Below are positions 9,530 to 50,992 of a stretch of 64,000 nucleotides of DNA, in pieces. The stretch's first letter is position 1, and each line of letters opens with the position of its first letter. The notes beneath the pieces were generated by a model that did no database searches, was not told the DNA's origin, and saw only the letters and a program-made list of their open reading frames with translations. The DNA lies in the NCBI GenBank assembly GCA_964477745.1, contig CAYZEI010000002.1:5054-69053 (forward strand), given 5' to 3'. This DNA is from an uncultured Candidatus Saccharibacteria bacterium. GTDB taxonomy: Bacteria > Patescibacteriota > Doudnabacteria > UBA920. A program made the translations under genes and the position numbers.

Positions 9530-10597
9530 TCAATTCTTTAACGCTTCTTTTTTTGCTTCTAAATCAGCTTTCTTTAAGGCATCTGTAATGAGGTCAAACT
9601 TACCTTCCATAATCAAATTAATCTGGTTGAAGTTTTGGTTTATACGGTGGTCAGTTACGCGGTCTTGGGGGAAGTTGTAGGTACGGATTTTTTCACTTCT
9701 GTCGCCGGTACCAATTTGGCCTTTAGTTAAACTGCGAATTTTTTTGTCTTCAATTTCCTGATAATGTGCGGCCACACGAGCGCGAATAACCGCCAAGGCC
9801 TTTTCCCGGTTTTGCGCCTGACTGCGTTCGTCCTGACACTGAGCCGTGATACCGGTAGGAATGTGTAAAATGCGAATAGCGCTGTAAGTTGTGTTAACCG
9901 ACTGTCCGCCGTGACCGGAAGAAGTGGTGGCTTCCATTTTTAAATCTTTCGGGTCTATGCTGTAATCTTTTTCTTCCAGTTCCGGCAAAACCGCCACAGT
10001 CACAGTGGAAGTATGTACCCGTCCCGACTTTTCGGTATCCGGCACGCGCTGGACACGATGCACGCCACTTTCAAACTTAAACTTGGAGTAAGGACCTTCG
10101 GCTCCGCCTTTTCCATGAATTTCAAAAATTACTTCCTTAAAACCGCCGGCGTCTGAGCGGGAGGAGGACATAATATAGGGTTTAAACTTATTTTCTTCGG
10201 CAAACTTGCCGTAGGCGCGAAAAATCTCCGCGGCAAAAAGCGTGGATTCGTCCCCACCGGCTCCGGCGCGAATTTCTATAATACAGTTTTTGTCATCGTT
10301 TGGGTCTTTAGGCAGTAAGGCGTCTTCGATTTCAGATTTGAGATTTATGATTTCAGATTCCAAGCGACGACCTTCGTCTAAAGCCATAGATTTAATTTCC
10401 GGATCCGGATCGATCAATAGTTTTTTATTCTCATCCAATTCTTTAATCTTTAAACCATAATTTTCAATCTTGCTTGCCACCGGCGCCAATTCCGACTGTC
10501 TTTTGCCCAATTTGGCCATATCAAAAGTACCGCCCGAAGACATTTGCTCCGTGAGGCTGGCGTATTCATCTAAGATTTTTTGAAATCCTGGTTCCAT
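9530..10597 (-). CDS. prfA: Peptide chain release factor 1
   Basis: GGQ motif (SGHGGQSVNTT). RF1-type tripeptide region QRVPDTEKSGRVHTS. Confidence 0.95.
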   Translation of the reverse strand: MEPGFQKILDEYASLTEQMSSGGTFDMAKLGKRQSELAPVASKIENYGLKIKELDENKKLLIDPDPEIKSMALDEGRRLESEIINLKSEIEDALLPKDPNDDKNCIIEIRAGAGGDESTLFAAEIFRAYGKFAEENKFKPYIMSSSRSDAGGFKEVIFEIHGKGGAEGPYSKFKFESGVHRVQRVPDTEKSGRVHTSTVTVAVLPELEEKDYSIDPKDLKMEATTSSGHGGQSVNTTYSAIRILHIPTGITAQCQDERSQAQNREKALAVIRARVAAHYQEIEDKKIRSLTKGQIGTGDRSEKIRTYNFPQDRVTDHRINQNFNQINLIMEGKFDLITDALKKADLEAKKEALKN

Positions 10598-13681: not shown

Positions 13682-13757
13682 GCCCACTTAGCTCATTTGG
13701 CAGAGCAGCTCCATGGTAAGGAGCAGGTGATCAGTTCGAATCTGATAGTGGGCTCCA
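13682..13757 (+). tRNA. tRNA-Thr (anticodon GGT), CCA encoded
   Basis: Cloverleaf folded by hand: acceptor gcccact/agtgggc; anticodon loop atGGTaa; T-loop ttcgaat. Confidence 0.85.
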
Positions 13758-13763
13758 GATTAA

Positions 13764-13797
13764 AACACCGCACAAATTTGTGCGGTGTTTTAAATTT
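13764..13797 (+). terminator. Terminator (aacaccgcacAAATTTgtgcggtgtt + T-run)
   Basis: Perfect palindrome with a T-run. Confidence 0.7.
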
Positions 13798-13824
13798 AAC
13801 ATATTACACTCTTCAGTGGTAAAT

Positions 13825-13856
13825 AAAAAAACTTTCAGAAATCTGAAAGTTTTTTT
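13825..13856. terminator. Bidirectional terminator (A-run-ctttcag-aaat-ctgaaag-T-run) downstream of tRNA-Tyr
   Basis: Perfect 7-bp stem flanked by A6/T7 runs. Confidence 0.6.
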
Positions 13857-13857
13857 A

Positions 13858-13943
13858 TGGTGGGCAGGACAGGATTCGAACCTGTGAAGGCATAAGCCAA
13901 CTGATTTACAGTCAGTCGCGTTTGACCGCTTCGCTACCTGCCC
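13858..13943 (-). tRNA. tRNA-Tyr (anticodon GTA), long variable arm, CCA encoded
   Basis: Reverse complement folds with acceptor gggcagg/cctgccc, anticodon loop ctGTAaa and T-loop ttcgaat. Confidence 0.85.
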
Positions 13944-14129
13944 AAACGCTTCAATATATTATCATTTTTTTAACCATTTGGTCAATAAGCGACATTTAAA
14001 AAAATTACCTAAAGCCTTTACACAACCCCAAATAAATGATATTATTTAATGTTTCCAACTTGTAGGAGGAAACAAACTCCGCTACCGAGAGGGTAGCAAA
14101 GTCAGACGTGATGTTTGAGGAGTGTAAAT

Positions 14130-14555
14130 ATGCCAGTAACAGGCAAGTCCGAAGTCCATGCCCTGCAATACGCAGCGTGCATGTTTATGAACATTCTAGA
14201 CCAGGTACTGTGGTGCCGCCTTGATGGCGGGGAGCCGAATGAGAAAGGTCTCAACATCGAAGTGTCCCCGGGGAAGACCAAAAACGATTTCAAAGTTTTA
14301 ATCCATCCGGTAGGGTGGCCTCAGGAATCTAACATCCACAGCAGGTTTTCGGGCAATGACAAGATCGGATGGCACTTTTGGGAAGCCACTATCGATGCAC
14401 TGCATTTAATGCAAGACGGAAAACAGTTCAACGTTTTCTTCCAGATGAATACCGCCGCATGCTGGAAGAGACCGACATTCCACTGTTTTACGAATGGAGG
14501 AGCAGCCTTTTTTAAACAGGCGGCTTTCGAGGCTGGGTTCACCGTAGAGGACTGA
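14130..14555 (+). CDS. Hypothetical protein (141 aa) in GC-rich islet next to the tRNA pair
   Basis: ATG at 14130 with GAGGAG SD 7 nt upstream (the track ORF starts at TTG 14115). No recognised domain. Confidence 0.45.
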   Translation: MPVTGKSEVHALQYAACMFMNILDQVLWCRLDGGEPNEKGLNIEVSPGKTKNDFKVLIHPVGWPQESNIHSRFSGNDKIGWHFWEATIDALHLMQDGKQFNVFFQMNTAACWKRPTFHCFTNGGAAFFKQAAFEAGFTVED

Positions 14556-14687
14556 GTTACCACAATCCATTCGGCAGGCATTGCCGGAACGTCTCGACAT
14601 GATCGGGATAAGACCTACGTCCGAGGGTTAAATCGGACATCTTTCCAAGTTTGTTTACATTAGTAAATTTAGAAAGATAAATCTTGT

Positions 14688-14762
14688 TTAAACACCTCAA
14701 CCATCGGTTGAGGTGTTTAAATATCTAACCCCACTTCGATACGTCGACGTATCGAAGTGGGG
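14688..14762 (+). terminator. Two consecutive hairpins (aaacacctcaacc...ggttgaggtgttt; 34-bp perfect palindrome ccccacttcgatacGTCGACgtatcgaagtgggg)
   Basis: Perfect inverted repeats on direct reading. Confidence 0.5.
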
Positions 14763-14793
14763 CAGGGAACTGAAATAGGTTATACTACAAATA

Positions 14794-15573
14794 ATGCACA
14801 AACAAATTTACAATACATATAAACCAGTAGGACTAACTCCACTACAAGCTTTGGAGGCTTTTAGAAAACAGGCGAAACTGCCGGCGGGTTTAAAAATGTC
14901 TTATGCCGGGAGACTGGACCCGTTGGCTGAAGGGGTGCTAATTTTAATTTGCGGGGATAAATTAAAAGAAAAGGATAAATTTTTAAAGCTAAACAAAACT
15001 TACCAAGCACAAATTCTTTTTGGCGTCGCCACGGATACGTTTGACTTGATGGGGAAAATTTTAAAAGTTGATGCGAATTTACCCCCGGTTGATAAAATAA
15101 AAAAAATGGTAAAAAATTTAGTCGGAAATATTATTTTACCTATCCCGCCGTATTCTTCCGTGCCAATAAACGGCAAGCCCAGTTTTATGTATGCCAGGGC
15201 AGGGGATTTAAGTTTAAAAAATATACAAAGCCGGGAAATGAAAATTTTAAAAATTACTCTTGAGGGTTATGAAAATATATCGGCTCATATGGTTTTAAAA
15301 TCCGCTCAACAAAAAATTAACAAAGTTAGCGGGGATTTTAGGCAAAAAGAAATTTTAAAACTTTGGAAACAAAAGGCGCCCGGCAAATTTGTGAATTTTA
15401 AAATTCTAAAATTAAAAATAAATTGTGCCAGCGGAACCTACATTCGCTCCATAGCACACCAATTAGGCACACAACTAAACTGTCCGGCTTTACTTTACCA
15501 CCTAACCCGCCAAAAAGTCGGCCGCTACAATATCAAATCATCCATAAAACTTAAAAACACCGCTTCAATCTGA
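14794..15573 (+). CDS. truB: tRNA pseudouridine(55) synthase
   Basis: GRLDPLAEGVL catalytic Asp motif. Confidence 0.85.
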   Translation: MHKQIYNTYKPVGLTPLQALEAFRKQAKLPAGLKMSYAGRLDPLAEGVLILICGDKLKEKDKFLKLNKTYQAQILFGVATDTFDLMGKILKVDANLPPVDKIKKMVKNLVGNIILPIPPYSSVPINGKPSFMYARAGDLSLKNIQSREMKILKITLEGYENISAHMVLKSAQQKINKVSGDFRQKEILKLWKQKAPGKFVNFKILKLKINCASGTYIRSIAHQLGTQLNCPALLYHLTRQKVGRYNIKSSIKLKNTASI

Positions 15574-15587
15574 AGCGGTGTTTTTTT
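15554..15587 (+). terminator. Terminator (aacaccgcttcaatctgaagcggtgtt + T7) overlapping the truB 3' end
   Basis: Hairpin plus T-run. Confidence 0.7.
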
Positions 15588-15635
15588 GACATTTGAAATT
15601 TGGATTTTGACATTCCAATTCCGCAACGGAATTGG

Positions 15636-16886
15636 CTACGTTCCTTCCTGCCAGCTCGACAAATACTTTTTCTGAGCCGGAGTCAGAGTATCAATCTTTA
15701 CTCCCATGGCTTCCAATTTTAATTTAGACACGCGTTCGTCAATTTCTTTTGGCACATCGTAAACTTGAGCGTGCATATTTTTGTAATTTTTAGACAACCA
15801 TAAGCAGGTTAAGGCTTGGTCGGCAAAAGACATATCCATAACCGCACTTGGATGACCTTCGGCTGCAGCCAAGTTCATAAGGCGTCCTTCGGCAATCAAG
15901 AATAAATTTCTTCCATTTGGCATAGTATATTCTTCCACTTGGTCGCGAACAGTGCGGTGAGATTTGGCCAATTTTTGCATATCCTTTTGGTTTATCTCAA
16001 CATTAAAGTGCCCGCTATTGCCCAAAATTGCCCCGTCCTTCATTAATTTCATATGTTGGGCGGTAATAACGTCCTTGTCTCCTGTGGCAGTTAAAAATAC
16101 GTCGCCAATCTTGGCCGCGTCTACCATTTTCATAACTTCAAAACCGTCCATGGCCGCTTTAAGTGCCGGCAAGGGGTCCACTTCGGTAACCACAACTCTG
16201 GCACCTAAACCCTTAGCGCGCAAAGCCATACCGCTTCCGCAGTAACCATATCCGGCTACTACAACAATTTTACCGGACAGTAAAACATTGGTCGCTCTCA
16301 GCAAACCATCCATAGTGCTTTGACCGGTTCCGTAATAGTTATCAAACATATGTTTGGTCGGAGTGTCATTAACCGCCACGATTGGATATTTAAGCGCGCC
16401 GTCTTTAGCCATGGCCTTAAGACGAATAACTCCGGTGGTGGTTTCTTCTTGTCCGGCAATTACGGTTTTTAATAATTCTTTGCGTTCGCTGTGAATTAAA
16501 GAAATTAAATCCGCACCGTCGTCTATGGTAATGTGCGGTTTAAAATCCAAAGTTTTATTTAAACACATGTAATAATCTTTGTTGGAAATTCCTTTCCAGG
16601 CAAAAACATTTATTCCGTCTTCCACCAAAGCTGCAGCGACGTCGTCCTGAGTAGATAGGGGATTACTGCAACACAAAACCACTTCCGCGCCACCGGCGGC
16701 AATAGCCTTGGCCAAAACCGCGGTCTCTTTGGTTACGTGCAAACACGCCGCAATGGTCATATTTTTAAACGGCTGGTTCTTTTTGAATTCTTGGGCAATT
16801 TTCCGCATAACCGGCATTTCGCGTTCGGCGAGCGTAATATTTATATGCCCCTGCTTGGCCAACTTCATGTCTTTTACTTTGTGCAT
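15636..16886 (-). CDS. ahcY: Adenosylhomocysteinase
   Basis: NAD-binding GYGYCGSG motif. Conserved SAHH blocks. Confidence 0.95.
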   Translation of the reverse strand: MHKVKDMKLAKQGHINITLAEREMPVMRKIAQEFKKNQPFKNMTIAACLHVTKETAVLAKAIAAGGAEVVLCCSNPLSTQDDVAAALVEDGINVFAWKGISNKDYYMCLNKTLDFKPHITIDDGADLISLIHSERKELLKTVIAGQEETTTGVIRLKAMAKDGALKYPIVAVNDTPTKHMFDNYYGTGQSTMDGLLRATNVLLSGKIVVVAGYGYCGSGMALRAKGLGARVVVTEVDPLPALKAAMDGFEVMKMVDAAKIGDVFLTATGDKDVITAQHMKLMKDGAILGNSGHFNVEINQKDMQKLAKSHRTVRDQVEEYTMPNGRNLFLIAEGRLMNLAAAEGHPSAVMDMSFADQALTCLWLSKNYKNMHAQVYDVPKEIDERVSKLKLEAMGVKIDTLTPAQKKYLSSWQEGT

Positions 16887-17051
16887 TTGTTTCCTTAAAA
16901 AGTTAATTTGTACCGGTTTATTATAGCAAAATTTTCATTCCTGACAAAGGCTCTGGAAACTTTTTCTTACATATGCTAAACTAGCTCAACTGAAATTTGC
17001 CCCTGACAAACCGGGGGTGGTATCAACAAACAAGAATAAGGAGTGAAGACA

Positions 17052-17390
17052 ATGGCTACACAGGCCACTGGTCAACAGGTTATTACCGGATTCATCGTCC
17101 GGCGGTGGAAAAATGAGTTCCTCTCCCGCAAGGGAGAATGGATTGAACAGCCTCAAGGGATAGTGTGTGCATTCGTGCACCAACTTGAAGAGATTCTGAA
17201 CATCGACAGGACAATCATCAACCAGGCACAGTACATGTACTTTGGGGAGTACTCCCCAGAGACTGGCTTTGCCAAATCCAGGAGCCTGCCGTTAGCGGTC
17301 CCAAAGGAATTCAGAAATTTCCAAGATGACCTGGCAGAGGCGGTACTGGAACAAATGACGGTCAACCTCAAGGCCACACAAACGCCATAG
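17052..17390 (+). CDS. Hypothetical protein (112 aa) in GC-rich islet
   Basis: ATG with AAGGAGTG SD (the track ORF starts at GTG 17043). About 50% GC by eye. Own terminator. Confidence 0.45.
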   Translation: MATQATGQQVITGFIVRRWKNEFLSRKGEWIEQPQGIVCAFVHQLEEILNIDRTIINQAQYMYFGEYSPETGFAKSRSLPLAVPKEFRNFQDDLAEAVLEQMTVNLKATQTP

Positions 17391-17435
17391 CGTCAACCGT
17401 CATCACAACCGGCTAACCACGCCCCTGAGCCCCAG

Positions 17436-17473
17436 CCCTCCCCGCACCACACGCGGGGAGGGTACTATTTTTT
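17436..17473 (+). terminator. Terminator (ccctccccgc...gcggggaggg + T-run)
   Basis: GC-rich 10-bp stem followed by TACTATTTTTT. Confidence 0.7.
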
Positions 17474-17539
17474 AAAGACTAGACTTTTTTAAGGTTTTAT
17501 GTCAAAATATATTGAGTTTGTTACCCCACTTATCTTATT

Positions 17540-17615
17540 GCCAGCTTAGCTCATCTGGTAGAGCAACGGTTTTGTAAACCGTAGGTGGTCGGTTCAAGTC
17601 CGACAGCTGGCTCCA
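17540..17615 (+). tRNA. tRNA-Thr (anticodon TGT), CCA encoded
   Basis: Acceptor gccagct/agctggc; anticodon loop ttTGTaa; T-loop ttcaagt. Confidence 0.85.
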
Positions 17616-17757
17616 CTACTTCGTCCCGATGAATTGGGACTACGAAGTGCGGGCATTACTTTCCATGTTGGGATCAATCATGGAATAAAAAAGATTTCTT
17701 TCGCCAAAGCAATCTTTTAATTTTTCAATTTTAAATCATTAAATTTTTAAATTACCT

Positions 17758-17913
17758 ATGTCCCAAGATCATTTGATAAACCTGGAATGTACAGTTTGCC
17801 ATAACTTAAATTACCAGACCAAAAAAAACAAGAAGAATACCGCCAAGCGCTTAGAACTTCAGAAGTTCTGCAAACAGTGCAAAAAGAAAGTCATGCACAA
17901 AGAAACAAAGTAA
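17758..17913 (+). CDS. rpmG: 50S ribosomal protein L33 (51 aa)
   Basis: Translation [51 protein letters not shown]. Cys-x2-Cys pairs typical of L33. Below the ORF-track size cutoff. Confidence 0.8.
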
Positions 17914-17991
17914 TATTATAGAAGCAAGAAAATTGAGTTGTGTATTAAGTAACCCTTGATTCTCGATTCTAGATTCTTGCTTCTATTTAAT

Positions 17992-18065
17992 AGGGGTTTG
18001 GTGAAGTGGTATCACAAAGGTCTCCAAAACCTTCGTCGTGGGTCCGATTCCCACAGCCCCTGCCA
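17992..18065 (+). tRNA. tRNA-Trp (anticodon CCA)
   Basis: Acceptor aggggtt/agcccct. Anticodon stem-loop aaggt-ctCCAaa-acctt resembles E. coli tRNA-Trp. The T-loop reads tccgatt (C at position 55), which is unusual. Confidence 0.75.
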
Positions 18066-35659: not shown

Positions 35660-36100
35660 ATGAAAATACATCCAAGTAAAATATTTTTAGAAACAAAAAA
35701 ACAGTTTGAAATAGTGGATATTACCAGCCACGTGCAAAAGGCGGTTTTGGAATCCGGGATTAAAAACGGAATAGTGGTTGTATTTTGCCCGCATACCACC
35801 GCCGCAATTAGAGTTAATCATAATGAACCGCTACTACTTCAGGACATTATGAAAACCCTTTACCGCATAGTGCCCATAGATCAAAGCTATAGTCATGATT
35901 TATTTGAGGTCAGACAAAACGTGGCTCCAAATGAGCGAAGTAATGGCCATGCCCACGTGAAAGCTTTTTTACTTGGATCATCCGAAAATTTACCAATTGA
36001 AAAAGGGTCTCTTTCCATTGGCGCTAAACAAAGCGTGTTATTTATTGAACTGGACGGCGGAAGAAGCAGGGAAGTAAATTTACAAATTTTGGGAGAATAA
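35660..36100 (+). CDS. YjbQ/UPF0047 family protein
   Basis: FCPHTTAAI...HAHVKAFLLG family blocks. Upstream TGgTATAAT. Confidence 0.75.
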   Translation: MKIHPSKIFLETKKQFEIVDITSHVQKAVLESGIKNGIVVVFCPHTTAAIRVNHNEPLLLQDIMKTLYRIVPIDQSYSHDLFEVRQNVAPNERSNGHAHVKAFLLGSSENLPIEKGSLSIGAKQSVLFIELDGGRSREVNLQILGE

Positions 36101-37947: not shown

Positions 37948-38874
37948 TTATTCTAATTTACTGCCAACAAAATTTTGGTAGCCGTTTAAGAATTCCAAAA
38001 TCGGACTTTCGTTTTTCCCTTCCAATTGTAATGAGCTGATTTGTAAAGCGGTGTTTTGTCCACAAACCAGAATTCCTTGTTCCAGCACTGTTCCTGGTGC
38101 ATTTTGTCCTACCGGCCAATCAACAGCCGGATAGCAACCGGTAACTTTTAATTTTTTCCCGTTCCACGTAGTCCAAATTCCCGGCCAAAGGTAGAAAGCG
38201 CGAAATTGATTATATATTTCCTGGGCGGTTTTATTCCAATCCACCTTCCCGTCATTTTTGGAAATAATATTGGTGTGACTAACGCCCGTTTCCACTTGGG
38301 GAAGGGGAGTGACTTTACCGGAAGTATAGTCTTGAACCACCCCACTGATAATTCTTGCGGACAACTTGGCAAGCTTGTCTGAAAGAGTAAAATAATTATC
38401 ATCCGGTTCAACGGCAATGATTTCTTGTGCAATGAGCGGGCCGGTATCCACTTGCTCATCAAGAACAAAAATACTGGTTCCGGAATGGCTGTCGCCGTTT
38501 AACAACGAGGCCTGAATCGGGGATGGTCCGCGATATTTGGGAAGCAAAGAAAAATGCACGTTAATAGTTTTATATGGGGGCAAATTTATAACTTCCAAAG
38601 GTAAAATCTTGCCGTAAGCCACAACCACAAAAATATCGGCATTTAAACCTTGAAGCAGACTTAAAAATTCAGGATTATTTTTTACCCGGTCGGGTTTATG
38701 CAGAGGGAGTTTTAAATCAACCGCCAATGCGGAAACCGGACTTTCCTGCAGTATTTGTTTTCTGCCCACTTTTACATCCGGGTTTGTTACCACGGCTAAA
38801 ATTTCGTGCTCTTTTTTTAAAGCTTCCAAAATGGGTAAGGCGACATTAGCAGTGCCAAAAAAAACAATACGCAT
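37948..38874 (-). CDS. fmt: Methionyl-tRNA formyltransferase
   Basis: MRIVFFGT start and SLLPKYRG motif. The upstream 17 codons of the track ORF overlap a palindromic element and are judged non-coding. Confidence 0.9.
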   Translation of the reverse strand: MRIVFFGTANVALPILEALKKEHEILAVVTNPDVKVGRKQILQESPVSALAVDLKLPLHKPDRVKNNPEFLSLLQGLNADIFVVVAYGKILPLEVINLPPYKTINVHFSLLPKYRGPSPIQASLLNGDSHSGTSIFVLDEQVDTGPLIAQEIIAVEPDDNYFTLSDKLAKLSARIISGVVQDYTSGKVTPLPQVETGVSHTNIISKNDGKVDWNKTAQEIYNQFRAFYLWPGIWTTWNGKKLKVTGCYPAVDWPVGQNAPGTVLEQGILVCGQNTALQISSLQLEGKNESPILEFLNGYQNFVGSKLE

Positions 38875-44701: not shown

Positions 44702-46009
44702 ATGTTCAATCCATTTGAAACCAAAACACAAAAGAAATTTGCTTTCGGGCTTATCTTTAGCCTTATTTTTGCTATGGGCGTTTCTTTTGTCCGCGCCGAT
44801 CAAACTGCGGAAGAATTAGCAGCCACCAAAACCGCCAATGAAAAGAAACTCCAGCAAATAAACCAGCAAATTAAAACTTACCAACAACAAATCGCCACCA
44901 CACAAGCCAAATCCAGCAGTTTAAAAAACGAGATTTTTATTTACGACAAGCAAATTATTTCCACGGAATTGCAAATCCAAGGAAAAGAAACGCAAATTAG
45001 CGACGCCAATTTACAAATTACCCAGCTGGAAGACTTAATTGCAAAAAAACTTAAGGAAATTGACGATAATAAAAAAGTTTTGGGCCAATTAATAGTTGAA
45101 CTCAAGCAATATGATGACCAGTATGCATTAAAAACTACGGTCGGTAGCGACAACCTGTCGGATTTTTTGGATCAGTTTCAATTTACCCAAAATCTGCAAA
45201 GCAAAATTTATCAATTGGTGCAAAAAATTAAAGACTTAAAAGCCAGGTTAGAAGGGCAAAAAAGAGATTTAGAAACCCAGGTTAAACAACTTGAAGAATT
45301 AAAAAACCAATTGGAGATTACAGAAAATTCTTTAAGCGCTGTGCGAGGTCAAAAACAATCTTTGCTTAATCAAACCAAAGGAATTGAAAAAAACTTTCAG
45401 AAACTACTTTCTTCCAGCAAAGCCGATGAAGAAAACTTACAAAAAGAAATCCAAGACTTGGACGCAAAAATCCGAGCCAAGCTCGGAAACAAATCCATTC
45501 CCGCGGCCAAAGGCGTTTTGGCCTGGCCTATGGACGGCATTAAAACCCAAAATTATGGGAACACCGGATTTACCGCTCTTGGGTATAACTTTCACAACGG
45601 CATAGACATAGCCGCACCGGCCGGCCAACCGATTTACGCCGCTGCTGACGGTGAAGTTTTATATACAGACAAAAGCGACGCCTCGTACGGCAATTGGGTA
45701 GCAATTAAACACAACATCAGTACTAAAAATGGCAGTAGTCAAATTATCACTCTGTACGCGCATTTTAGAAGCTTCAAAGTCTCTCCGGGTCAACAAGTTA
45801 AGCAAGGTGATGTAATCGGTTACGAAGGAAACACCGGCAACACCACCAAAAAATTGTACGGACCCGAACGTGGCTACCACATTCACTTTGGCGTTTACGA
45901 CGCTGAAGGATTTGGGGTAAGCACCGGAGCTTATACCAAAATTTACGGCAATTATAAAGTGCCTTACGGTTATACTTATAACCCGCTTAATTTTTTAGGT
46001 AGTAATTAA
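44702..46009 (+). CDS. Peptidase M23 (LytM/EnvC-like) with N-terminal coiled coil
   Basis: HNGIDIAAPAG...ITLYAH...HIHFGVY. Confidence 0.85.
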   Translation: MFNPFETKTQKKFAFGLIFSLIFAMGVSFVRADQTAEELAATKTANEKKLQQINQQIKTYQQQIATTQAKSSSLKNEIFIYDKQIISTELQIQGKETQISDANLQITQLEDLIAKKLKEIDDNKKVLGQLIVELKQYDDQYALKTTVGSDNLSDFLDQFQFTQNLQSKIYQLVQKIKDLKARLEGQKRDLETQVKQLEELKNQLEITENSLSAVRGQKQSLLNQTKGIEKNFQKLLSSSKADEENLQKEIQDLDAKIRAKLGNKSIPAAKGVLAWPMDGIKTQNYGNTGFTALGYNFHNGIDIAAPAGQPIYAAADGEVLYTDKSDASYGNWVAIKHNISTKNGSSQIITLYAHFRSFKVSPGQQVKQGDVIGYEGNTGNTTKKLYGPERGYHIHFGVYDAEGFGVSTGAYTKIYGNYKVPYGYTYNPLNFLGSN

Positions 46010-46023
46010 TTAATAAATATTTT

Positions 46024-46998
46024 ATGCCTAGTAAAATAAAAAAATACTTTTATATTTTGCTTCTCGTCGAATTAATAATCAGCTACATTCCAGCCCAGGT
46101 GTTTGCGGCGGAACAATATAATTACGCCTCTTCCGGTGTCTCATCACAAATAGAAGCCTACCTGTGTGCACCAAGTGCGGTTGATAAAAAATCGACAGAG
46201 ACTACAACTGGAACGGGCTGGCGCTTAGTGGATGGCGGATACCAACAATATGCCGCATCAAATAACGCAAACTCCGGGGATTTGTATAAATGCATTAACC
46301 AACTATATAAGTTCGCAATTATTCTTTCTGCTGTCATAGGTGTTTTCTTTTTAGTTATGGCAGGATACATTTATATGTCCGCCGACGGAAATCAAGAATC
46401 CGTGGACAAAGCAAAAAATATTTTAGTTACCACCATAACCAGCATGGTTGTATTAATGGCCGGATACTTGCTACTAAAAGCAATCAACCCCGATATAATC
46501 CAATTTAAATCTATTCAACCGCCAAGCGTACAGGTGAACACAGCTTCATGGGGCGAATTCAAACCACTTGTCGCTCCAAATGGAGATTTCATAGGAGTAG
46601 TTAATGGAGGTCAGTCATATAAAACTCTTGGAAAAAATGATGCTGAATTAATTACTAAAGCTGGATGCACTTTTCAAAACAATGATTTCAAAGTTCAAAT
46701 CAGCGGGATTCAAACAGATTTATTTAATGCTATTGTAGAAGTATGTAGAGCAGGAAGTGGAAATGGCAAAATTCAAATTTCATCTGTAACAGGTGGCGAT
46801 CATGCAAAAAATTCCTACCATTATAAATTCTGTGCCATTGATATGGCAGATGGAACCGGCACATTTAGAAACAACCCCGCGGGCAAAGCCGCTGAAGCAA
46901 AAGCAAAAAGTTTTGGAAATCTTTTAACAATCAACCCTGGAACGGATGCCGACAAAATAGATCACTTACATATTGACGCAAGAAGTAAATGTCCATAA
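46024..46998 (+). CDS. Secreted/membrane protein: signal peptide, VirB2/TrbC-like hydrophobic hairpin, C-terminal LAS-type (M15-like) zinc-peptidase-like domain
   Basis: SYHYKFCAID (H-x6-D) and DHLHID (HxH) motifs. Confidence 0.4.
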   Translation: MPSKIKKYFYILLLVELIISYIPAQVFAAEQYNYASSGVSSQIEAYLCAPSAVDKKSTETTTGTGWRLVDGGYQQYAASNNANSGDLYKCINQLYKFAIILSAVIGVFFLVMAGYIYMSADGNQESVDKAKNILVTTITSMVVLMAGYLLLKAINPDIIQFKSIQPPSVQVNTASWGEFKPLVAPNGDFIGVVNGGQSYKTLGKNDAELITKAGCTFQNNDFKVQISGIQTDLFNAIVEVCRAGSGNGKIQISSVTGGDHAKNSYHYKFCAIDMADGTGTFRNNPAGKAAEAKAKSFGNLLTINPGTDADKIDHLHIDARSKCP

Positions 46999-47412: not shown

Positions 47413-48675
47413 TTACTTATCGGTATATACTTTTCTTAAATCTGTAACTAGCTTTGGTAAAATTTTCAAAAGTTTTTTTAAATCATTCAATGTGGTACTT
47501 TTGCCCAAGCTAAACCTTACGCTACTTTTAGCCTCGCTTAGGGATCTACCTATGGCTAACAAGACATGAGAAGGCTCATTGGTGGCACAGGCGCTAGAAG
47601 TTGAGACGCTAAAGCCATAGGCGTCCAAATAAAGCAACAGTGCCTCCCCTTCTACTCCAAAAAAAGTAAAATTGATGTTATTGGGTAATTTATTTAATTT
47701 AATAAATTTATTATTTTTTATTTCATTTACTTTTAATTTACTATTATCAGCACCGTTTAAAAGTACATTAGGAATCAACTTAATTACTTGTTCGGTTAGA
47801 AACTTTTGTAATTTAAATAATCTGGCGTTTTCTTTATTGGCTTCTGCTTGCGCCAACTCAAAGGCCTTGGATAGACCAACTACCCCGGGAACGTTCTCTG
47901 TTCCGGCTCTTAAACCTTTTTCCTGCTCTCCACCATGCACAAACGGAGCAATTGGAGTTCCTATCCTCACATACAAAAATCCGGTCTGCTTGGGGCCGTA
48001 AATTTTGCTCCCATTAACTGACATTAAATCCACTCCGAGTTTTTCTACATTCAAGCTCGAGCTCCCGGAAGCCTGACAAGCATCGGTATGGAAAAATATT
48101 CGCGGTAAGTTATTTTTTATTCTTTCAATATTAATTCCTTTGAGCCACTTCCCTATTTCCTCAATTGGTTGTAGCGTACCGATTTCATTATTGGCATACA
48201 TTACGGAAATTAAAATAGTTTCCGGTCGCACCGAGGCTTTGAGTTTAGCTAAATCAATAAGGCCGAATTTATCTACTCCCACTAAACTGGTTTTATAGCC
48301 CTCCCCTTTTAGATAAGAAAAAGAATTTATTACACAATGATGTTCGATTGTGGAAGTAATTAAATGCGGTAGCCCGAGTTTGTGAGATTTACTGCTTTCG
48401 GCCATCTTTGCCATTCCAAGAATTGCCAAATTAACACTTTCCGTTCCCCCGGCGGTAAAAATAATCTCGGCCGGTTTAGCGCCGATAATTTTGGCAATGG
48501 CATTTCGTGAATTTTCCAAGGCCTCCTTAGCCTGCTTCCCATGGGAATGCAACGAAGATGGATTGCCAAATTTTTCACTTTCAAAAGGCGCCATAGCCTT
48601 TTTAACCCGCGGGTCAATTGGGGTGGTGGACGCGTAATCCAAGTAAATTAAATTTTTAGATTTCTTTTGATACAT
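47413..48675 (-). CDS. Cysteine desulfurase (NifS/IscS family, class V aminotransferase)
   Basis: LIYLDYASTTP and PLP-Lys SVNGSKIYGPKQTGFLYV. Start set at MYQKK; the upstream extension overlaps strong hairpins. Confidence 0.85.
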   Translation of the reverse strand: MYQKKSKNLIYLDYASTTPIDPRVKKAMAPFESEKFGNPSSLHSHGKQAKEALENSRNAIAKIIGAKPAEIIFTAGGTESVNLAILGMAKMAESSKSHKLGLPHLITSTIEHHCVINSFSYLKGEGYKTSLVGVDKFGLIDLAKLKASVRPETILISVMYANNEIGTLQPIEEIGKWLKGINIERIKNNLPRIFFHTDACQASGSSSLNVEKLGVDLMSVNGSKIYGPKQTGFLYVRIGTPIAPFVHGGEQEKGLRAGTENVPGVVGLSKAFELAQAEANKENARLFKLQKFLTEQVIKLIPNVLLNGADNSKLKVNEIKNNKFIKLNKLPNNINFTFFGVEGEALLLYLDAYGFSVSTSSACATNEPSHVLLAIGRSLSEAKSSVRFSLGKSTTLNDLKKLLKILPKLVTDLRKVYTDK

Positions 48676-48689
48676 AAATATTTTAAAAA

Positions 48690-49145
48690 TAACCGCCGTG
48701 AGGTAAAACCCCGCGGCGGAAGAAGGAAGCATACTCGGCATCTTCAGACCTTCTTCCGCCGTGCTTAAACTTTAAGCGTTAAAGCTGTCTCGGCCATACT
48801 ACAGCCGTTAAAACGACAACCCGACTTAAAGTCCGAGCTCTTAACAACGAGCGCTCGTCTTGTTAAGAGCTCTTATTAAAGAGCGTGTAGCGAATCAGAA
48901 GGAGGCTGGCAGTCTTCAATCCCCAAAGCTGTTACCCTTTGAAAAGAGACTACCACAGATTGCCTGTGGTTGCGGGAGCCGGTGTTAACGACTTGCCACA
49001 AACAACCCATTCCTCCTTCTGTCGCTAACTCACCAGGATTTCTCCTAGCGAGATAAAGCCTCTCAAAACCATGAACCCACCCGAAGAAGGAGGCGTTCAG
49101 GGAAATATAAGCGTGATGTCGTCGCCTATTCAAGAGGCCTGATTA
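48690..49145 (-). ncRNA. Candidate structured RNA gene (about 400-450 nt, GC-rich); leading guess RNase P RNA (rnpB)
   Basis: No credible ORF. Many long stems (e.g. gagctcttaacaa...ttgttaagagctc; cggcggaagaagg...ccttcttccgccg). A..AAGUCCGAGCUC / GAGCUCGGACUU segments resemble RNase P CR-I/CR-V. Bounded by terminators on both sides. Confidence 0.35.
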
Positions 49146-49164
49146 AAAATACTATACAATATAA

Positions 49165-49196
49165 AACAAAAAAAGTCAACCTATTTAAGGCTGACT
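49165..49196 (-). terminator. Terminator for the 49211..49624 gene (gtcagcc-ttaaatagg-ttgac + T7 on the minus strand)
   Basis: Hairpin plus T-run. Confidence 0.6.
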
Positions 49197-49210: not shown

Positions 49211-49624
49211 TTACCTCTGAGATTTTACAAACCCTGCTGTCACCGCCTCCCCTTCCGTTTTAAAACATTGTTCCGGTTTTACAGTTTTATAAAATGCCCC
49301 GCCACTGACATGATAAATCTTTTTACCCCCGGACGAAATATTCCCTTTAACAATACAATCAGTGGCGGGAGTTGAACTAGCAACCACCACTGTCCCCTGC
49401 TGAGCCTCTTTTGCCGGAGCTACGGTTTCTTGTGTAATTGGTTTTTTATCTGAATTTGTGGTATAATTATTTTGTGACTTTATTTTTTCTCGGCGATATC
49501 CCCGCTCAAAACGACCGCTACCGAAACCGATAAAAAATACTAAAACAAAACACACAGATATAACTACCTGCTGTTTGTTTTCTTTTTTCTCTAACCAATC
49601 TTTAATTTCTTGATAAGAAAACAT
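49211..49624 (-). CDS. Small membrane-anchored protein with Cys-containing C-terminal domain
   Basis: N-terminal TM. C-terminal CIVKGNISSGGKKIYHVSGGAFYKT...CFKTEGEAVTAGF. Confidence 0.45.
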   Translation of the reverse strand: MFSYQEIKDWLEKKENKQQVVISVCFVLVFFIGFGSGRFERGYRREKIKSQNNYTTNSDKKPITQETVAPAKEAQQGTVVVASSTPATDCIVKGNISSGGKKIYHVSGGAFYKTVKPEQCFKTEGEAVTAGFVKSQR

Positions 49625-49657: not shown

Positions 49658-50992
49658 ATGAAATACGCATTTGTACTAGGCAGAGTTTATACCTTATCTA
49701 TAGCGGAATTAATTGCAGTTTTGGAAAAACCTGACCAAGCCTTAGGTTTAACCGGCACACCAACAAAGATTCTGGAGACTTCTCCGGAGATTTTAGTTAT
49801 AGAAACAGAAAACCCTCTGAATGCGGAAAAATTGCAAAAAAAATTAGGCGGGATGGTGAAAGTTTTAGAAGTGGTGGACATGGTAAAAAAACGAGAAGCC
49901 GAATCCGTCAACTTTGCATTAAAACATTACTTTAGACCGGGAATTTTAAAAAAACAATTTTTCAAAGACTATAAAGGTAAGGTGCAATTTGGCTTAAGCA
50001 TTTATCTTTTAGATATGGAACTCTTAAGACCACCGACTTCTACCGACAGGCAGGAGCGCGGTTCGTTTAACAGTATTTTTGCCGAACCAAAACGTATCGG
50101 CATGATGATAAAAAAAGGCCTAACCGAAACCGGTGCCAGCGTTAGATTGGTCTTGCCGGAATTTAATTCCTTATCTTTAGCTTCCGTAGTTGTCACCAAA
50201 AATCTTTTATTACAAAAGGGCGCGGAAATTTGTTTACTGGCCGGCAAAGACAGAGTCTACACGGCCAAAACTTTAGCCGTGCAAGATTTTGAAGACTATG
50301 GCCGACGCGACTACCAGCGCCCGGTACGGGATGAAAAACAAGGAATGATTCCACCCAAGGTGGCACAAATTATGTTAAATTTGTCCGGCTCCAAAGCCGG
50401 CGATACTGTCTTAGACCCTTTTTGTGGTATAGGCACAATCATACAAGAAGGAATTTTATTAGGTTACAAAATGCTAGGTAGTGATATTAATAAAAAGGCA
50501 ATCCACGGCAGTGAACAAAATTTAGAATGGTTCCGCAATCGCTACAAAATTTCCCCGGGCAAATATCATGTGGAAGTAGCCGATGCAAAAAAAGTTACCG
50601 GTTTACTGTCCGCCCAAAAAATCAATGCCGTTGTCACCGAAGGAACCTTAGGACCGATTTACGGCAAGTATCCCAAGCCAGAGGAAATTACCGCCAATTT
50701 TAATGATCTAACCAAACTTTATACCGCTTGCCTAGCGGAATTTGGGAAAATGTTGCCGTCAAAAGGGCGGGTGGTAATGTGTATTCCGGCATATAAAAAG
50801 ACCCGTGACATCTACGAAATGTTGCCCAGTCTTGACTTTATAGAGGCTTTAGGATATAATTTAGTGGATATTATTTCTCCCAGTTTGGCGAAAAAAATGA
50901 AATTTTTAAGGTTTTCAAACCGCGGAACCGCGATTTATGACCGCAAAGATCAAGTCGTCGCCAGAGAAATAGTCATCTTTGAAAAAATTTAA
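49658..50992 (+). CDS. Putative RNA (guanine-N2) methyltransferase, Trm11/RlmL-like (THUMP-like N-terminus + class I MTase)
   Basis: VLDPFCGIGTIIQEG motif I. Motif IV is non-canonical (VVTEGTLGP instead of D/NPPY). Confidence 0.5.
   Translation: MKYAFVLGRVYTLSIAELIAVLEKPDQALGLTGTPTKILETSPEILVIETENPLNAEKLQKKLGGMVKVLEVVDMVKKREAESVNFALKHYFRPGILKKQFFKDYKGKVQFGLSIYLLDMELLRPPTSTDRQERGSFNSIFAEPKRIGMMIKKGLTETGASVRLVLPEFNSLSLASVVVTKNLLLQKGAEICLLAGKDRVYTAKTLAVQDFEDYGRRDYQRPVRDEKQGMIPPKVAQIMLNLSGSKAGDTVLDPFCGIGTIIQEGILLGYKMLGSDINKKAIHGSEQNLEWFRNRYKISPGKYHVEVADAKKVTGLLSAQKINAVVTEGTLGPIYGKYPKPEEITANFNDLTKLYTACLAEFGKMLPSKGRVVMCIPAYKKTRDIYEMLPSLDFIEALGYNLVDIISPSLAKKMKFLRFSNRGTAIYDRKDQVVAREIVIFEKI

Follow-up and report, generated by a model that had tools for sequence, protein, structure and literature searches.

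Structured bacterial RNAs longer than 300 nt are rare apart from rRNA, RNase P RNA, transfer-messenger RNA (tmRNA) and introns, and OLE, GOLLD, ROOL, raiA and the HEARO/omega RNAs have each opened new biology. The genomes of the Candidate Phyla Radiation (CPR) are tiny and contain little non-coding DNA. Here we describe a locus in a stretch of 64,000 nt (hereafter the window, meaning this whole stretch) from contig CAYZEI010000002.1 of an uncultured Candidatus Saccharibacteria bacterium, placed by GTDB in the Doudnabacteria. The segment directly upstream of a gene for a NifS-like cysteine desulfurase is, in our judgement, likely to be a stand-alone gene for a new family of large, modular, structured non-coding RNAs (ncRNAs), restricted, as far as seen, to the Doudnabacteria-like CPR lineage. 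New means here that neither Rfam 15 nor the searchable literature yielded a match; large orphan ncRNAs as a general category are already known. Searches of the literature on structured RNAs of CPR bacteria and Doudnabacteria found no description of such an RNA, and only a study of diverged CPR RNase P RNAs (PMC8172020) was relevant.

All transcription signals around the ncRNA are situated on the minus strand (Table 1). Its sigma-70-type promoter is near-consensus, with 10/12 matches, and its 3' end was placed within the T-run 48692-48685, at about 48688. The terminator hairpin has 11 bp including one 1x1 mismatch (-19.1 kcal/mol, z = -4.3). The minus strand of the segment folds with -193.8 kcal/mol, compared with -145.4 +/- 6.3 kcal/mol in shuffled sequences (z = -7.75), and the plus strand with -147.8 kcal/mol (z = -4.5). 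The GC content is 0.485-0.51 across 48700-49100 vs 0.29-0.42 in the flanks. The element is present in a single copy in the window and has no flanking repeats.

The initial annotation had described this segment as GC-rich and as a structured ncRNA, 400-450 nt long and bounded by two terminators, and the description is backed by the promoter, the terminator, the folding z-score, the covariation given below and the lack of a conserved open reading frame (ORF), as well as by the measured GC content. The terminator that it had assigned to the upstream minus-strand gene was located as a hairpin of 9 bp followed by T7, while at the 3' side of the ncRNA the announced hairpin and T-run are present and the stem, given as 13 bp, is slightly shorter. 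It had also implied both strands together, and by the fold and the signals the RNA belongs to the minus strand alone. In the upstream gene's terminator, the 3' arm, GGTTGACT, also carries the -35 box of the ncRNA promoter, and the same overlap is observed in L083, L085, L140 and L091.

The NifS protein places the organism close to Candidatus Doudnabacteria. Relatives were taken from contigs encoding NifS homologues of 59-100% identity, to which two loci from a pattern scan of metagenomes were added. The genomes and assemblies with relatives include the 207-kb contig Ga0376277_0000498, GCA_038249015.1, GCA_964520505.1, GCA_964348995.1 and the metagenome assembly GCA_020049755.1, and the locus is also present in assemblies from the runs SRR32414321 and SRR22746134. 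Ten further distinct versions of the ncRNA were identified at the same locus (L083/L127, L212/L213, L084, L085/L086, L140, L088/L089/L214, L336, L337-L339, L091 and L215), along with additional copies, L081 and L082 being identical and L087 truncated. The lengths of the ncRNA range from 328 to 553 nt across the relatives. The promoter, of the form TTGA[CT]N-17 nt-TAnnnT, is found at the same place in 11/11 distinct versions. A GC-rich terminator hairpin is also present in 11/11, with a T-run in the 10 whose extracted sequence extends that far, and the sequences of the terminator stems vary between lineages. Moreover, the NifS-sense strand folds better by 10-51 kcal/mol in each of the 11 distinct versions. 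Wherever upstream DNA is available, the gene order is sunset-domain gene, ncRNA, NifS, with the exception of L212.

Eight members (the window, L083, L212, L084, L085, L140, L088 and L336) have a common modular plan, whose domains we designate D1 to D5 along the transcript (Table 1). The loop of D1 retains (A)CAUC in the relatives. D3 is closed in these members by the helix (C)AGAAGGAGG/CCUCCUUCU(G), with the core GAAGGAGG/CCUCCUUC, and its junction is predicted alike in seven homologues, the helix and the 3a arrangement of L336 being recognized by inspection of the sequence. The loop of hairpin 3a has 22-26 nt in these eight members and the form (A)AGUCG-N2-4-CAYCGGCUCCCGY, in which the last 13 nt are near-invariant (CACCGGCUCCCGC, 48984-48972, in the window); the loop includes a self-complementary CCGG. 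In D5 the family sequence is GGCGGAAGRAGG...CCUUCUUCCGCC, with the terminator directly after it and GGCGGAAGG as the core of the terminal helix, and UUCCGCCGCG is unchanged in the six type-1 members having this domain (by alignment and inspection). L336 lacks D5 and carries UUUGCCGCGCG in its place; a single GAAGGAGG-type helix takes the roles of D3 and D5 in this member. In L085, L140 and L088 an unrelated four-way junction occupies the place of D4, a domain that L084 and L336 lack. The near-fixed parts of the molecule are the loops (A)CAUC and CAYCGGCUCCCGY and the purine/pyrimidine helices GAAGGAGG/CCUCCUUC and GGCGGAAGG/CCUUCUUCCGCC.

The helices of the ncRNA are maintained by compensatory changes. 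In particular, the stem of hairpin 3a is contiguous over 7-16 bp in 8/8 sequences (their alignment was anchored on the conserved loop and padded with N; MAFFT lost the register of the stem between lineages), and its sequence differs among them, with GUGG/CCAC, CAAA/UUUG, GCAG/CUGC, GCAA/UUGC, CGAC/GUCG and CGAU/AUCG all observed. In the 7-bp stem common to the eight sequences 100% of the cells are paired, both sides have changed in 6/7 pairs, and the cells with changes on both sides number 22 vs 7.1 +/- 2.1 in shuffles, a value reached by 0/500 of them. If the 3a partner is slid by 1-3 columns, pairing is 37-49%. With the 36 anchor combinations allowed per sequence, a 7-bp run arises by chance with a frequency of about 0.04 per sequence, and its chance across five or six independent lineages is negligible. 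The initial annotation had named the lack of an Rfam match together with the lack of covariation in alignments as grounds for refutation; covariation was found.

RNAalifold identifies 14 pairs with compensatory double changes among the window, L083 and L212, and 22 among L085, L140 and L088, the compensatory pairs of both subgroups being distributed over D1, D3, D4 and D5. The D1 junction is predicted in nine sequences with seven different closing-helix sequences (these are single-sequence folds and hence weaker evidence), and the compensations observed in D1 are CG to GC and CG to UA.

Two further sequence features of the molecule were considered. The middle hairpin of D4 in the window (D4b, 48869-48838, minus strand) is a near-perfect 32-nt palindrome, CUCUUAACAAGACGAGCGCUCGUUGUUAAGAG, with the self-complementary apex GAGCGCUC, which could also pair between molecules; the palindromic apex is not retained in L083. 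The recurrent UGGN within UGUGGUA could be read as T-box-like, and this reading was rejected, as its N covaries with its stem partner (U-A to C-G in L088); since this N pairs in the stem, the motif belongs to a helix and is not a bulge free to bind NCCA.

The region of the ncRNA is non-coding. The 85-aa ORF on its minus strand, which the initial annotation had already regarded as implausible, has no Pfam match and is interrupted in the nearest relative, L083, where the longest open stretch on the same strand comprises 42 codons. The ORFs annotated in the ncRNA region of L084, L085 and L088 lie in other frames or strands and have no mutual similarity. The public gene calls place unrelated "hypothetical proteins" of 120-141 aa in the ncRNA of these relatives (L084:2606-2974, L085:585-947, L088:1992-2417), and the called NifS products include a spurious N-terminal extension (48676-48741 in the window), with lengths of 442 aa in L081 and the ORF list and 439 aa in P0001. 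The overlap of the terminator with this extension had been pointed out initially and is correct, as the ORF 47413-48741 contains the hairpin and the homologues begin at 48675. The spurious ORFs (85-141 aa) and NifS extensions (442/439 aa) inside the ncRNA can now be corrected.

Three of the distinct versions, L091, L215 and L337, are more divergent. They retain the promoter, a CAUC-type hairpin (CAUC or CAUU) and a loop containing GCUCC, and in each of them one GGAGG-type closing helix (GAAGGAGG or GAGGAGG) abuts the terminator, while the full 13-nt motif is missing. Judging by the position, the promoter, the CAUC hairpin and the closing helix, they are probably distant relatives. L091 (L091:1933-2560) and L215 (L215:985-1500) share an extra region with GUGGGUGG...ACCGAGG...GGCRAAUG, and L337 (L337:1085-1500) has a single long enclosing helix, GGUGGGAAGGAGGAUAU/AUAUCCUUUUCCCACC, and a hairpin loop with GGGCUCCAUA.

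A hidden Markov model (HMM) of the 5' strand of D3 and hairpin 3a, run on 2.3 Mb of fetched DNA, assigns 45-57 bits to the family members and at most 18 bits to everything else. The ncRNA was not found by blastn, nhmmer or this HMM at 80 NifS loci of other CPR classes or phyla (at most 50% NifS identity), which came from a NifS-based scan of GTDB genomes. A blastn search of a phage collection gave no match to the ncRNA, and a pattern scan of viral contigs returned 120 stretches, all of them noise. The metagenome scan with the pattern AGTCGN{2,4}CAYCGGCTCCCGC yielded two true loci among the matches listed (L127 and L140), the others being random and on high-GC contigs.

Table 1. Features of the ncRNA locus and its neighbours in the window.
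Feature	Coordinates	Strand	Description
Gene upstream of the ncRNA, sunset-domain protein	49211-49624	-	137 aa; N-terminal transmembrane helix, C-terminal sunset domain
Intrinsic terminator of the sunset-domain gene	49174..49196	-	9 bp + T7; -13.5 kcal/mol, z = -5.7
Sigma-70-type promoter of the ncRNA	49151..49179	-	-35 TTGACT 49179-49174, 17-nt spacer, -10 TATAGT 49156-49151
ncRNA transcript	48685..49144	-	about 455 nt; predicted ends, 5' end at about 49144 from the -10 box
D1, three-way junction	49057..49139	-	closing helix GGCCUCUUGA/UUGAGAGGCU; hairpin 1a, then 1b
Hairpin 1a of D1	49129-49107	-	loop with ACAUC at 49119-49115
D2, hairpin	49029..49052	-	lineage of the window, L083 and L212 only
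D3, three-way junction	48896..49021	-	invariant closing helix CAGAAGGAGG/CCUCCUUCUG; holds hairpins 3a and 3b
Hairpin 3a	48957..49008	-	13-bp stem, 26-nt loop CAAGUCGUUAACACCGGCUCCCGCAA
Hairpin 3b, variable	48906..48956	-	starts with recurrent motif UGUGGUAG; compensations UA to GC and GC to AU
D4, lineage-specific	48764..48884	-	three hairpins: 48884-48869, 48869-48838, 48837-48764
D5	48715..48760	-	helix GGCGGAAGAAGG/CCUUCUUCCGCC, small capping hairpin; abuts the terminator
Intrinsic terminator of the ncRNA	48685..48719	-	CCGCCGCGGGG-UUUUA-CCUCACGGCGG (48719-48693), then UUAUUUUU (48692-48685)
Spurious ORF	48876..49133	-	85 aa, TTG start; no Pfam match, not conserved
NifS-like cysteine desulfurase	47413..48675	-	true start ATG 48675; homologues align from this Met

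The 4227 models of Rfam 15 were applied at the gathering thresholds to the window and at E <= 10 to the ncRNA region, its conserved hairpin and the relatives. At the gathering thresholds only four tRNAs were matched in the window, and OLE, GOLLD, ROOL, HEARO, raiA, 6S and all other families were unmatched in it and in the relatives. The tRNA genes (Thr-GGU, Tyr-GUA, Thr-UGU and Trp-CCA) are situated at 13682-18065, and the 64 kb contain no other RNA recognizable by Rfam. The matches at E <= 10 (porB, PyrR207, L10_leader, mt-tmRNA; 11-20 bits) are at the chance level only. The cmscan search proposed in the initial annotation, with the RNase P, tmRNA and signal recognition particle (SRP) models, gave no match for any of them.

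The initial annotation had considered the segment a candidate RNase P RNA. In RNase P RNA the conserved regions CR-I (GGAAAGUCC) and CR-V (ACAGAA..GGCUUA), distant in sequence, pair as helix P4, helix P1 formed by the 5' and 3' ends encloses the molecule, and P7-P12 form the specificity domain. The RNase P models (bacterial A and B, archaeal and nuclear) have no match at the gathering thresholds or at E <= 10 in the 851-nt region and 10 homologous loci, nor at E <= 10 in the isolated 86-nt conserved hairpin, for which the listed matches reach down to 11 bits. The two proposed P4 strands, AAAGUCCGAGCUC and GAGCUCGGACUU, are one site, 48828-48840, read on two strands, and this site is inside a D4 hairpin of the window, L083 and L212 that is absent in L084, L085, L088 and L336; the sequence proposed as CR-IV, UAAAGAGCG, corresponds to the complementary strand of a different D4 hairpin, likewise lineage-specific. 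The sequence GGAAAGTCC occurs once in the window, within a coding ORF at 38738. One could still suppose that the ncRNA is the RNase P RNA of this lineage, diverged or rearranged beyond the reach of covariance models, with the 3a loop AAGUCG...CCGGCU serving as a local P4. The size and the housekeeping-type promoter fit this supposition, and the short loop sequence AAGUCG...CCGGCUCC superficially resembles AAGUCCGGGCUCC, which we take to be the CR-I/P4 sequence, though its AAGUCG part is not retained in L212 (AGUGCC). In L337 the loop sequence GGGCUCCAUA presumably reproduces a 10-nt stretch of CR-I from E. coli, another likeness in favour of RNase P. The RNase P RNAs of CPR bacteria are diverged, often score below the Rfam thresholds and have helices missing (PMC8172020), but RF00010 nevertheless retrieved those diverged RNAs, which "had many conserved features", while here 11 sequences are without a match. 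A conserved CR-V-like motif is missing from the alignments of homologues, and the family has neither a long-range P4 nor a conserved region resembling P10-P12. P1 is missing in most members: D1, D3 and D5 are closed separately in the eight members (in L336 by one helix for D3 and D5), and an all-enclosing helix is found only in L337. No RNase P RNA is matched elsewhere in the window, which also fits the supposition, but the window is a small part of the genome, so this absence means little. We consider an RNase P identity very unlikely, and retain it because the search for a canonical rnpB covered only these 64 kb of the genome.

The other housekeeping RNAs are even less credible, a disguised tmRNA, SRP RNA or 6S RNA being in our view the least probable identity of all. 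For tmRNA, the size is close, and UAAUAA is found in a hairpin loop (48877-48872) after an open frame ending in ...HAL. Still, ARAGORN finds four tRNAs and no tmRNA, Rfam has no match to any of the three families in the window or in the relatives, and the tRNA-like domain is lacking, with no 5'/3' acceptor pairing, no GGUUCGAAUCC T-arm (none in any homologue) and no CCA. The faint matches to the tmRNA clan, 9.9 bits elsewhere in L091 and mt-tmRNA at 48940-48978 (13.2 bits, E 7.3, gathering 65), are at the chance level. The UAAUAA hairpin is lineage-specific, and on this ground the reading of the ...HAL-UAA-UAA frame as a tag peptide was rejected; the branched string of domains is unlike the rod of 6S RNA. 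More plausible than any of these, and yet unlikely, is a very long cis-acting 5' leader (a riboswitch or attenuator) of the NifS-like gene, with the terminator read through on a signal. The ncRNA is on the same strand and directly upstream of NifS at every locus, including L127 and L140, which were retrieved independently of NifS, and L212 keeps this linkage despite its different upstream neighbour; the terminator ends 17 nt before the NifS start codon, and CCGCC of the 3' strand of D5 overlaps the 5' arm of the terminator. On the other hand, no conserved antiterminator was found, the D5 overlap being just 2-3 nt in L088 and L140, known riboswitches do not resemble an RNA of 330-550 nt whose domains are interchangeable, and no cis-regulatory family of Rfam is matched. 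The linkage itself is biased by the retrieval of most loci through NifS, and conserved gene order is the general rule in these small genomes. Moreover, NifS has a -10-like box of its own (TAAAAT, 48685-48680) located 4 nt upstream of its ATG, and in most relatives such a box is found 4-10 nt before the ATG (TATAAT at 5-10 nt), that is, at a leaderless distance. The gene is thus probably transcribed from its own promoter, into a leaderless or near-leaderless mRNA. Finally, the segment could be without function, a GC-rich relic of a decayed gene or a scar of a mobile element that folds well by accident, as gene callers put unrelated ORFs there and the content of domains differs much between relatives. 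We hold this to be highly improbable, since compensatory changes keep the helices, the promoter and the terminator are retained in 11/11 versions together with the strand asymmetry of the fold, and the 13-nt loop motif remains near-invariant over a range in which the NifS proteins fall to about 63% identity; the lack of flanking repeats and the single copy in the window also speak against it.

Several points weigh against a new stand-alone ncRNA family as well. The set comprises 11 distinct sequences, only eight of them with the 13-nt loop, and most loci were retrieved through NifS, which makes the NifS linkage partly an artefact of ascertainment. Some helices are taken from single-sequence minimum free energy folds, and both ends of the transcript are deduced from sequence signals. 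The search for canonical RNase P RNA and tmRNA covered 64 kb here and at most 10 kb around the relatives, and the sub-threshold scores typical of CPR RNase P RNAs, as well as the superficial similarity of the 3a loop to CR-I, both described above, count on the same side. In L212 the 200 nt upstream of the ncRNA, the extent of the contig, are without the sunset-domain gene. The partnership with the sunset-domain protein discussed below is a guess from adjacency, and the role as a ribonucleoprotein scaffold is likewise a guess.

The protein encoded upstream of the ncRNA matches the sunset domain NF051437 with E = 2e-14. In NCBIfam the domain is further recorded at the C-terminus of the ribosomal proteins L17, L20 and L4, as an addition to them, and no paper on it was found in the literature. 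The protein has an Arg/Lys cluster after its transmembrane helix, its C-terminus is probably cytoplasmic, and it may bind RNA. Beyond the two immediate neighbours, the neighbourhood is kept across relatives down to about 60% NifS identity (including the genes at 49658-50992 on the plus strand, 46024-46998 and 44702-46009), with genes for an RNA methyltransferase of the UPF0020/TIGR01177 type, ribosomal protein L27, CTP synthase, a T4SS-pilin-like protein and an M23 peptidase.

Among the 59 ORFs of at least 120 aa in the window the use of Shine-Dalgarno (SD) sequences is scarce, with GGAG, GAGG or AGGA at -22 to -4 in 5/59 genes. A TATAAT-like box is observed within about 18 nt (often 5-8 nt) of the ATG at about 15 of the 59, for example at 35660, 44702, 49624 (minus strand), 28791 and 14794, which suggests that leaderless mRNAs are widespread in this genome. 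The idea that the GAAGGAGG/CCUCCUUC helices act as an SD/anti-SD decoy is weakened by the same 5/59 count. The 13-nt motif of the 3a loop has 14 near-complements (at most three mismatches) in the window vs 6.3 expected, and 14 was reached in 1/100 shuffles; these could be a trans target or chance, being suggestive at most. One sequence on the mRNA strand, GCCGGAGCCGGUG (10255-10267, minus strand), inside the ORF 9530-10597, complements the loop with one mismatch.

Judging by the quality of its promoter, the ncRNA would be made constitutively and at a high level. It might act in trans as the core of a ribonucleoprotein, or as a ribozyme. The near-fixed loops and the helices fixed in sequence would then be functional surfaces, the loops serving to recognize another RNA or a protein, on a scaffold made up of the variable domains. 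The candidate partner is the adjacent membrane-anchored sunset-domain protein, in an arrangement similar to that of OLE and OapA. More specifically, the RNA may represent an undescribed class with a conserved catalytic or recognition core (CAYCGGCUCCCGY, (A)CAUC and the GAAGGAGG helices) on a rapidly remodelled scaffold, either as a membrane-tethered ribonucleoprotein with the sunset-domain protein or as a remodelled ribozyme with a P4-like 3a loop, a proposal for and against which we see the case as evenly balanced. An RNA gene of 330-550 nt with a consensus promoter has been retained in tiny CPR genomes, and we therefore argue that its role is important. The family is a testable object: its loops are invariant, the scaffold that carries them varies, and its possible partner has a domain that is also fused to ribosomal proteins.

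Compared with known systems, the ncRNA resembles RNase P RNA in being a single-copy, stand-alone gene of about 330-550 nt with a strong promoter, GC-rich relative to the genome. It differs in that (A)CAUC, CAYCGGCUCCCGY and the GAAGGAGG helix have no counterpart in RNase P RNA, and in lacking the CR-I to CR-V set and the specificity domain. Attenuating 5' leaders, such as riboswitches and T-boxes, are likewise found upstream and on the same strand of a metabolic gene, with a terminator before the start codon; the ncRNA described here exceeds them three- to fivefold in size, and no conserved switch between a terminator and an antiterminator was detected in it. The RNAs of the OLE type are known from Bacillota or phages, while this family is from a CPR lineage and its domain content is far more variable; it is also smaller than OLE (about 600 nt), ROOL (about 580 nt) and GOLLD (about 800 nt). 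Its neighbour has a sunset domain and is not OapA, and the contact between the RNA and the protein is hypothetical. Still, as in the case of OLE and OapA, a large, multi-domain, GC-rich RNA of an AT-rich genome has its own promoter and terminator and occupies a fixed, vertically inherited locus beside the gene of a small protein anchored in the membrane, and, as in OLE and the large orphan ncRNAs GOLLD, ROOL, raiA and HEARO, conserved loops and junctions are set between variable helices.

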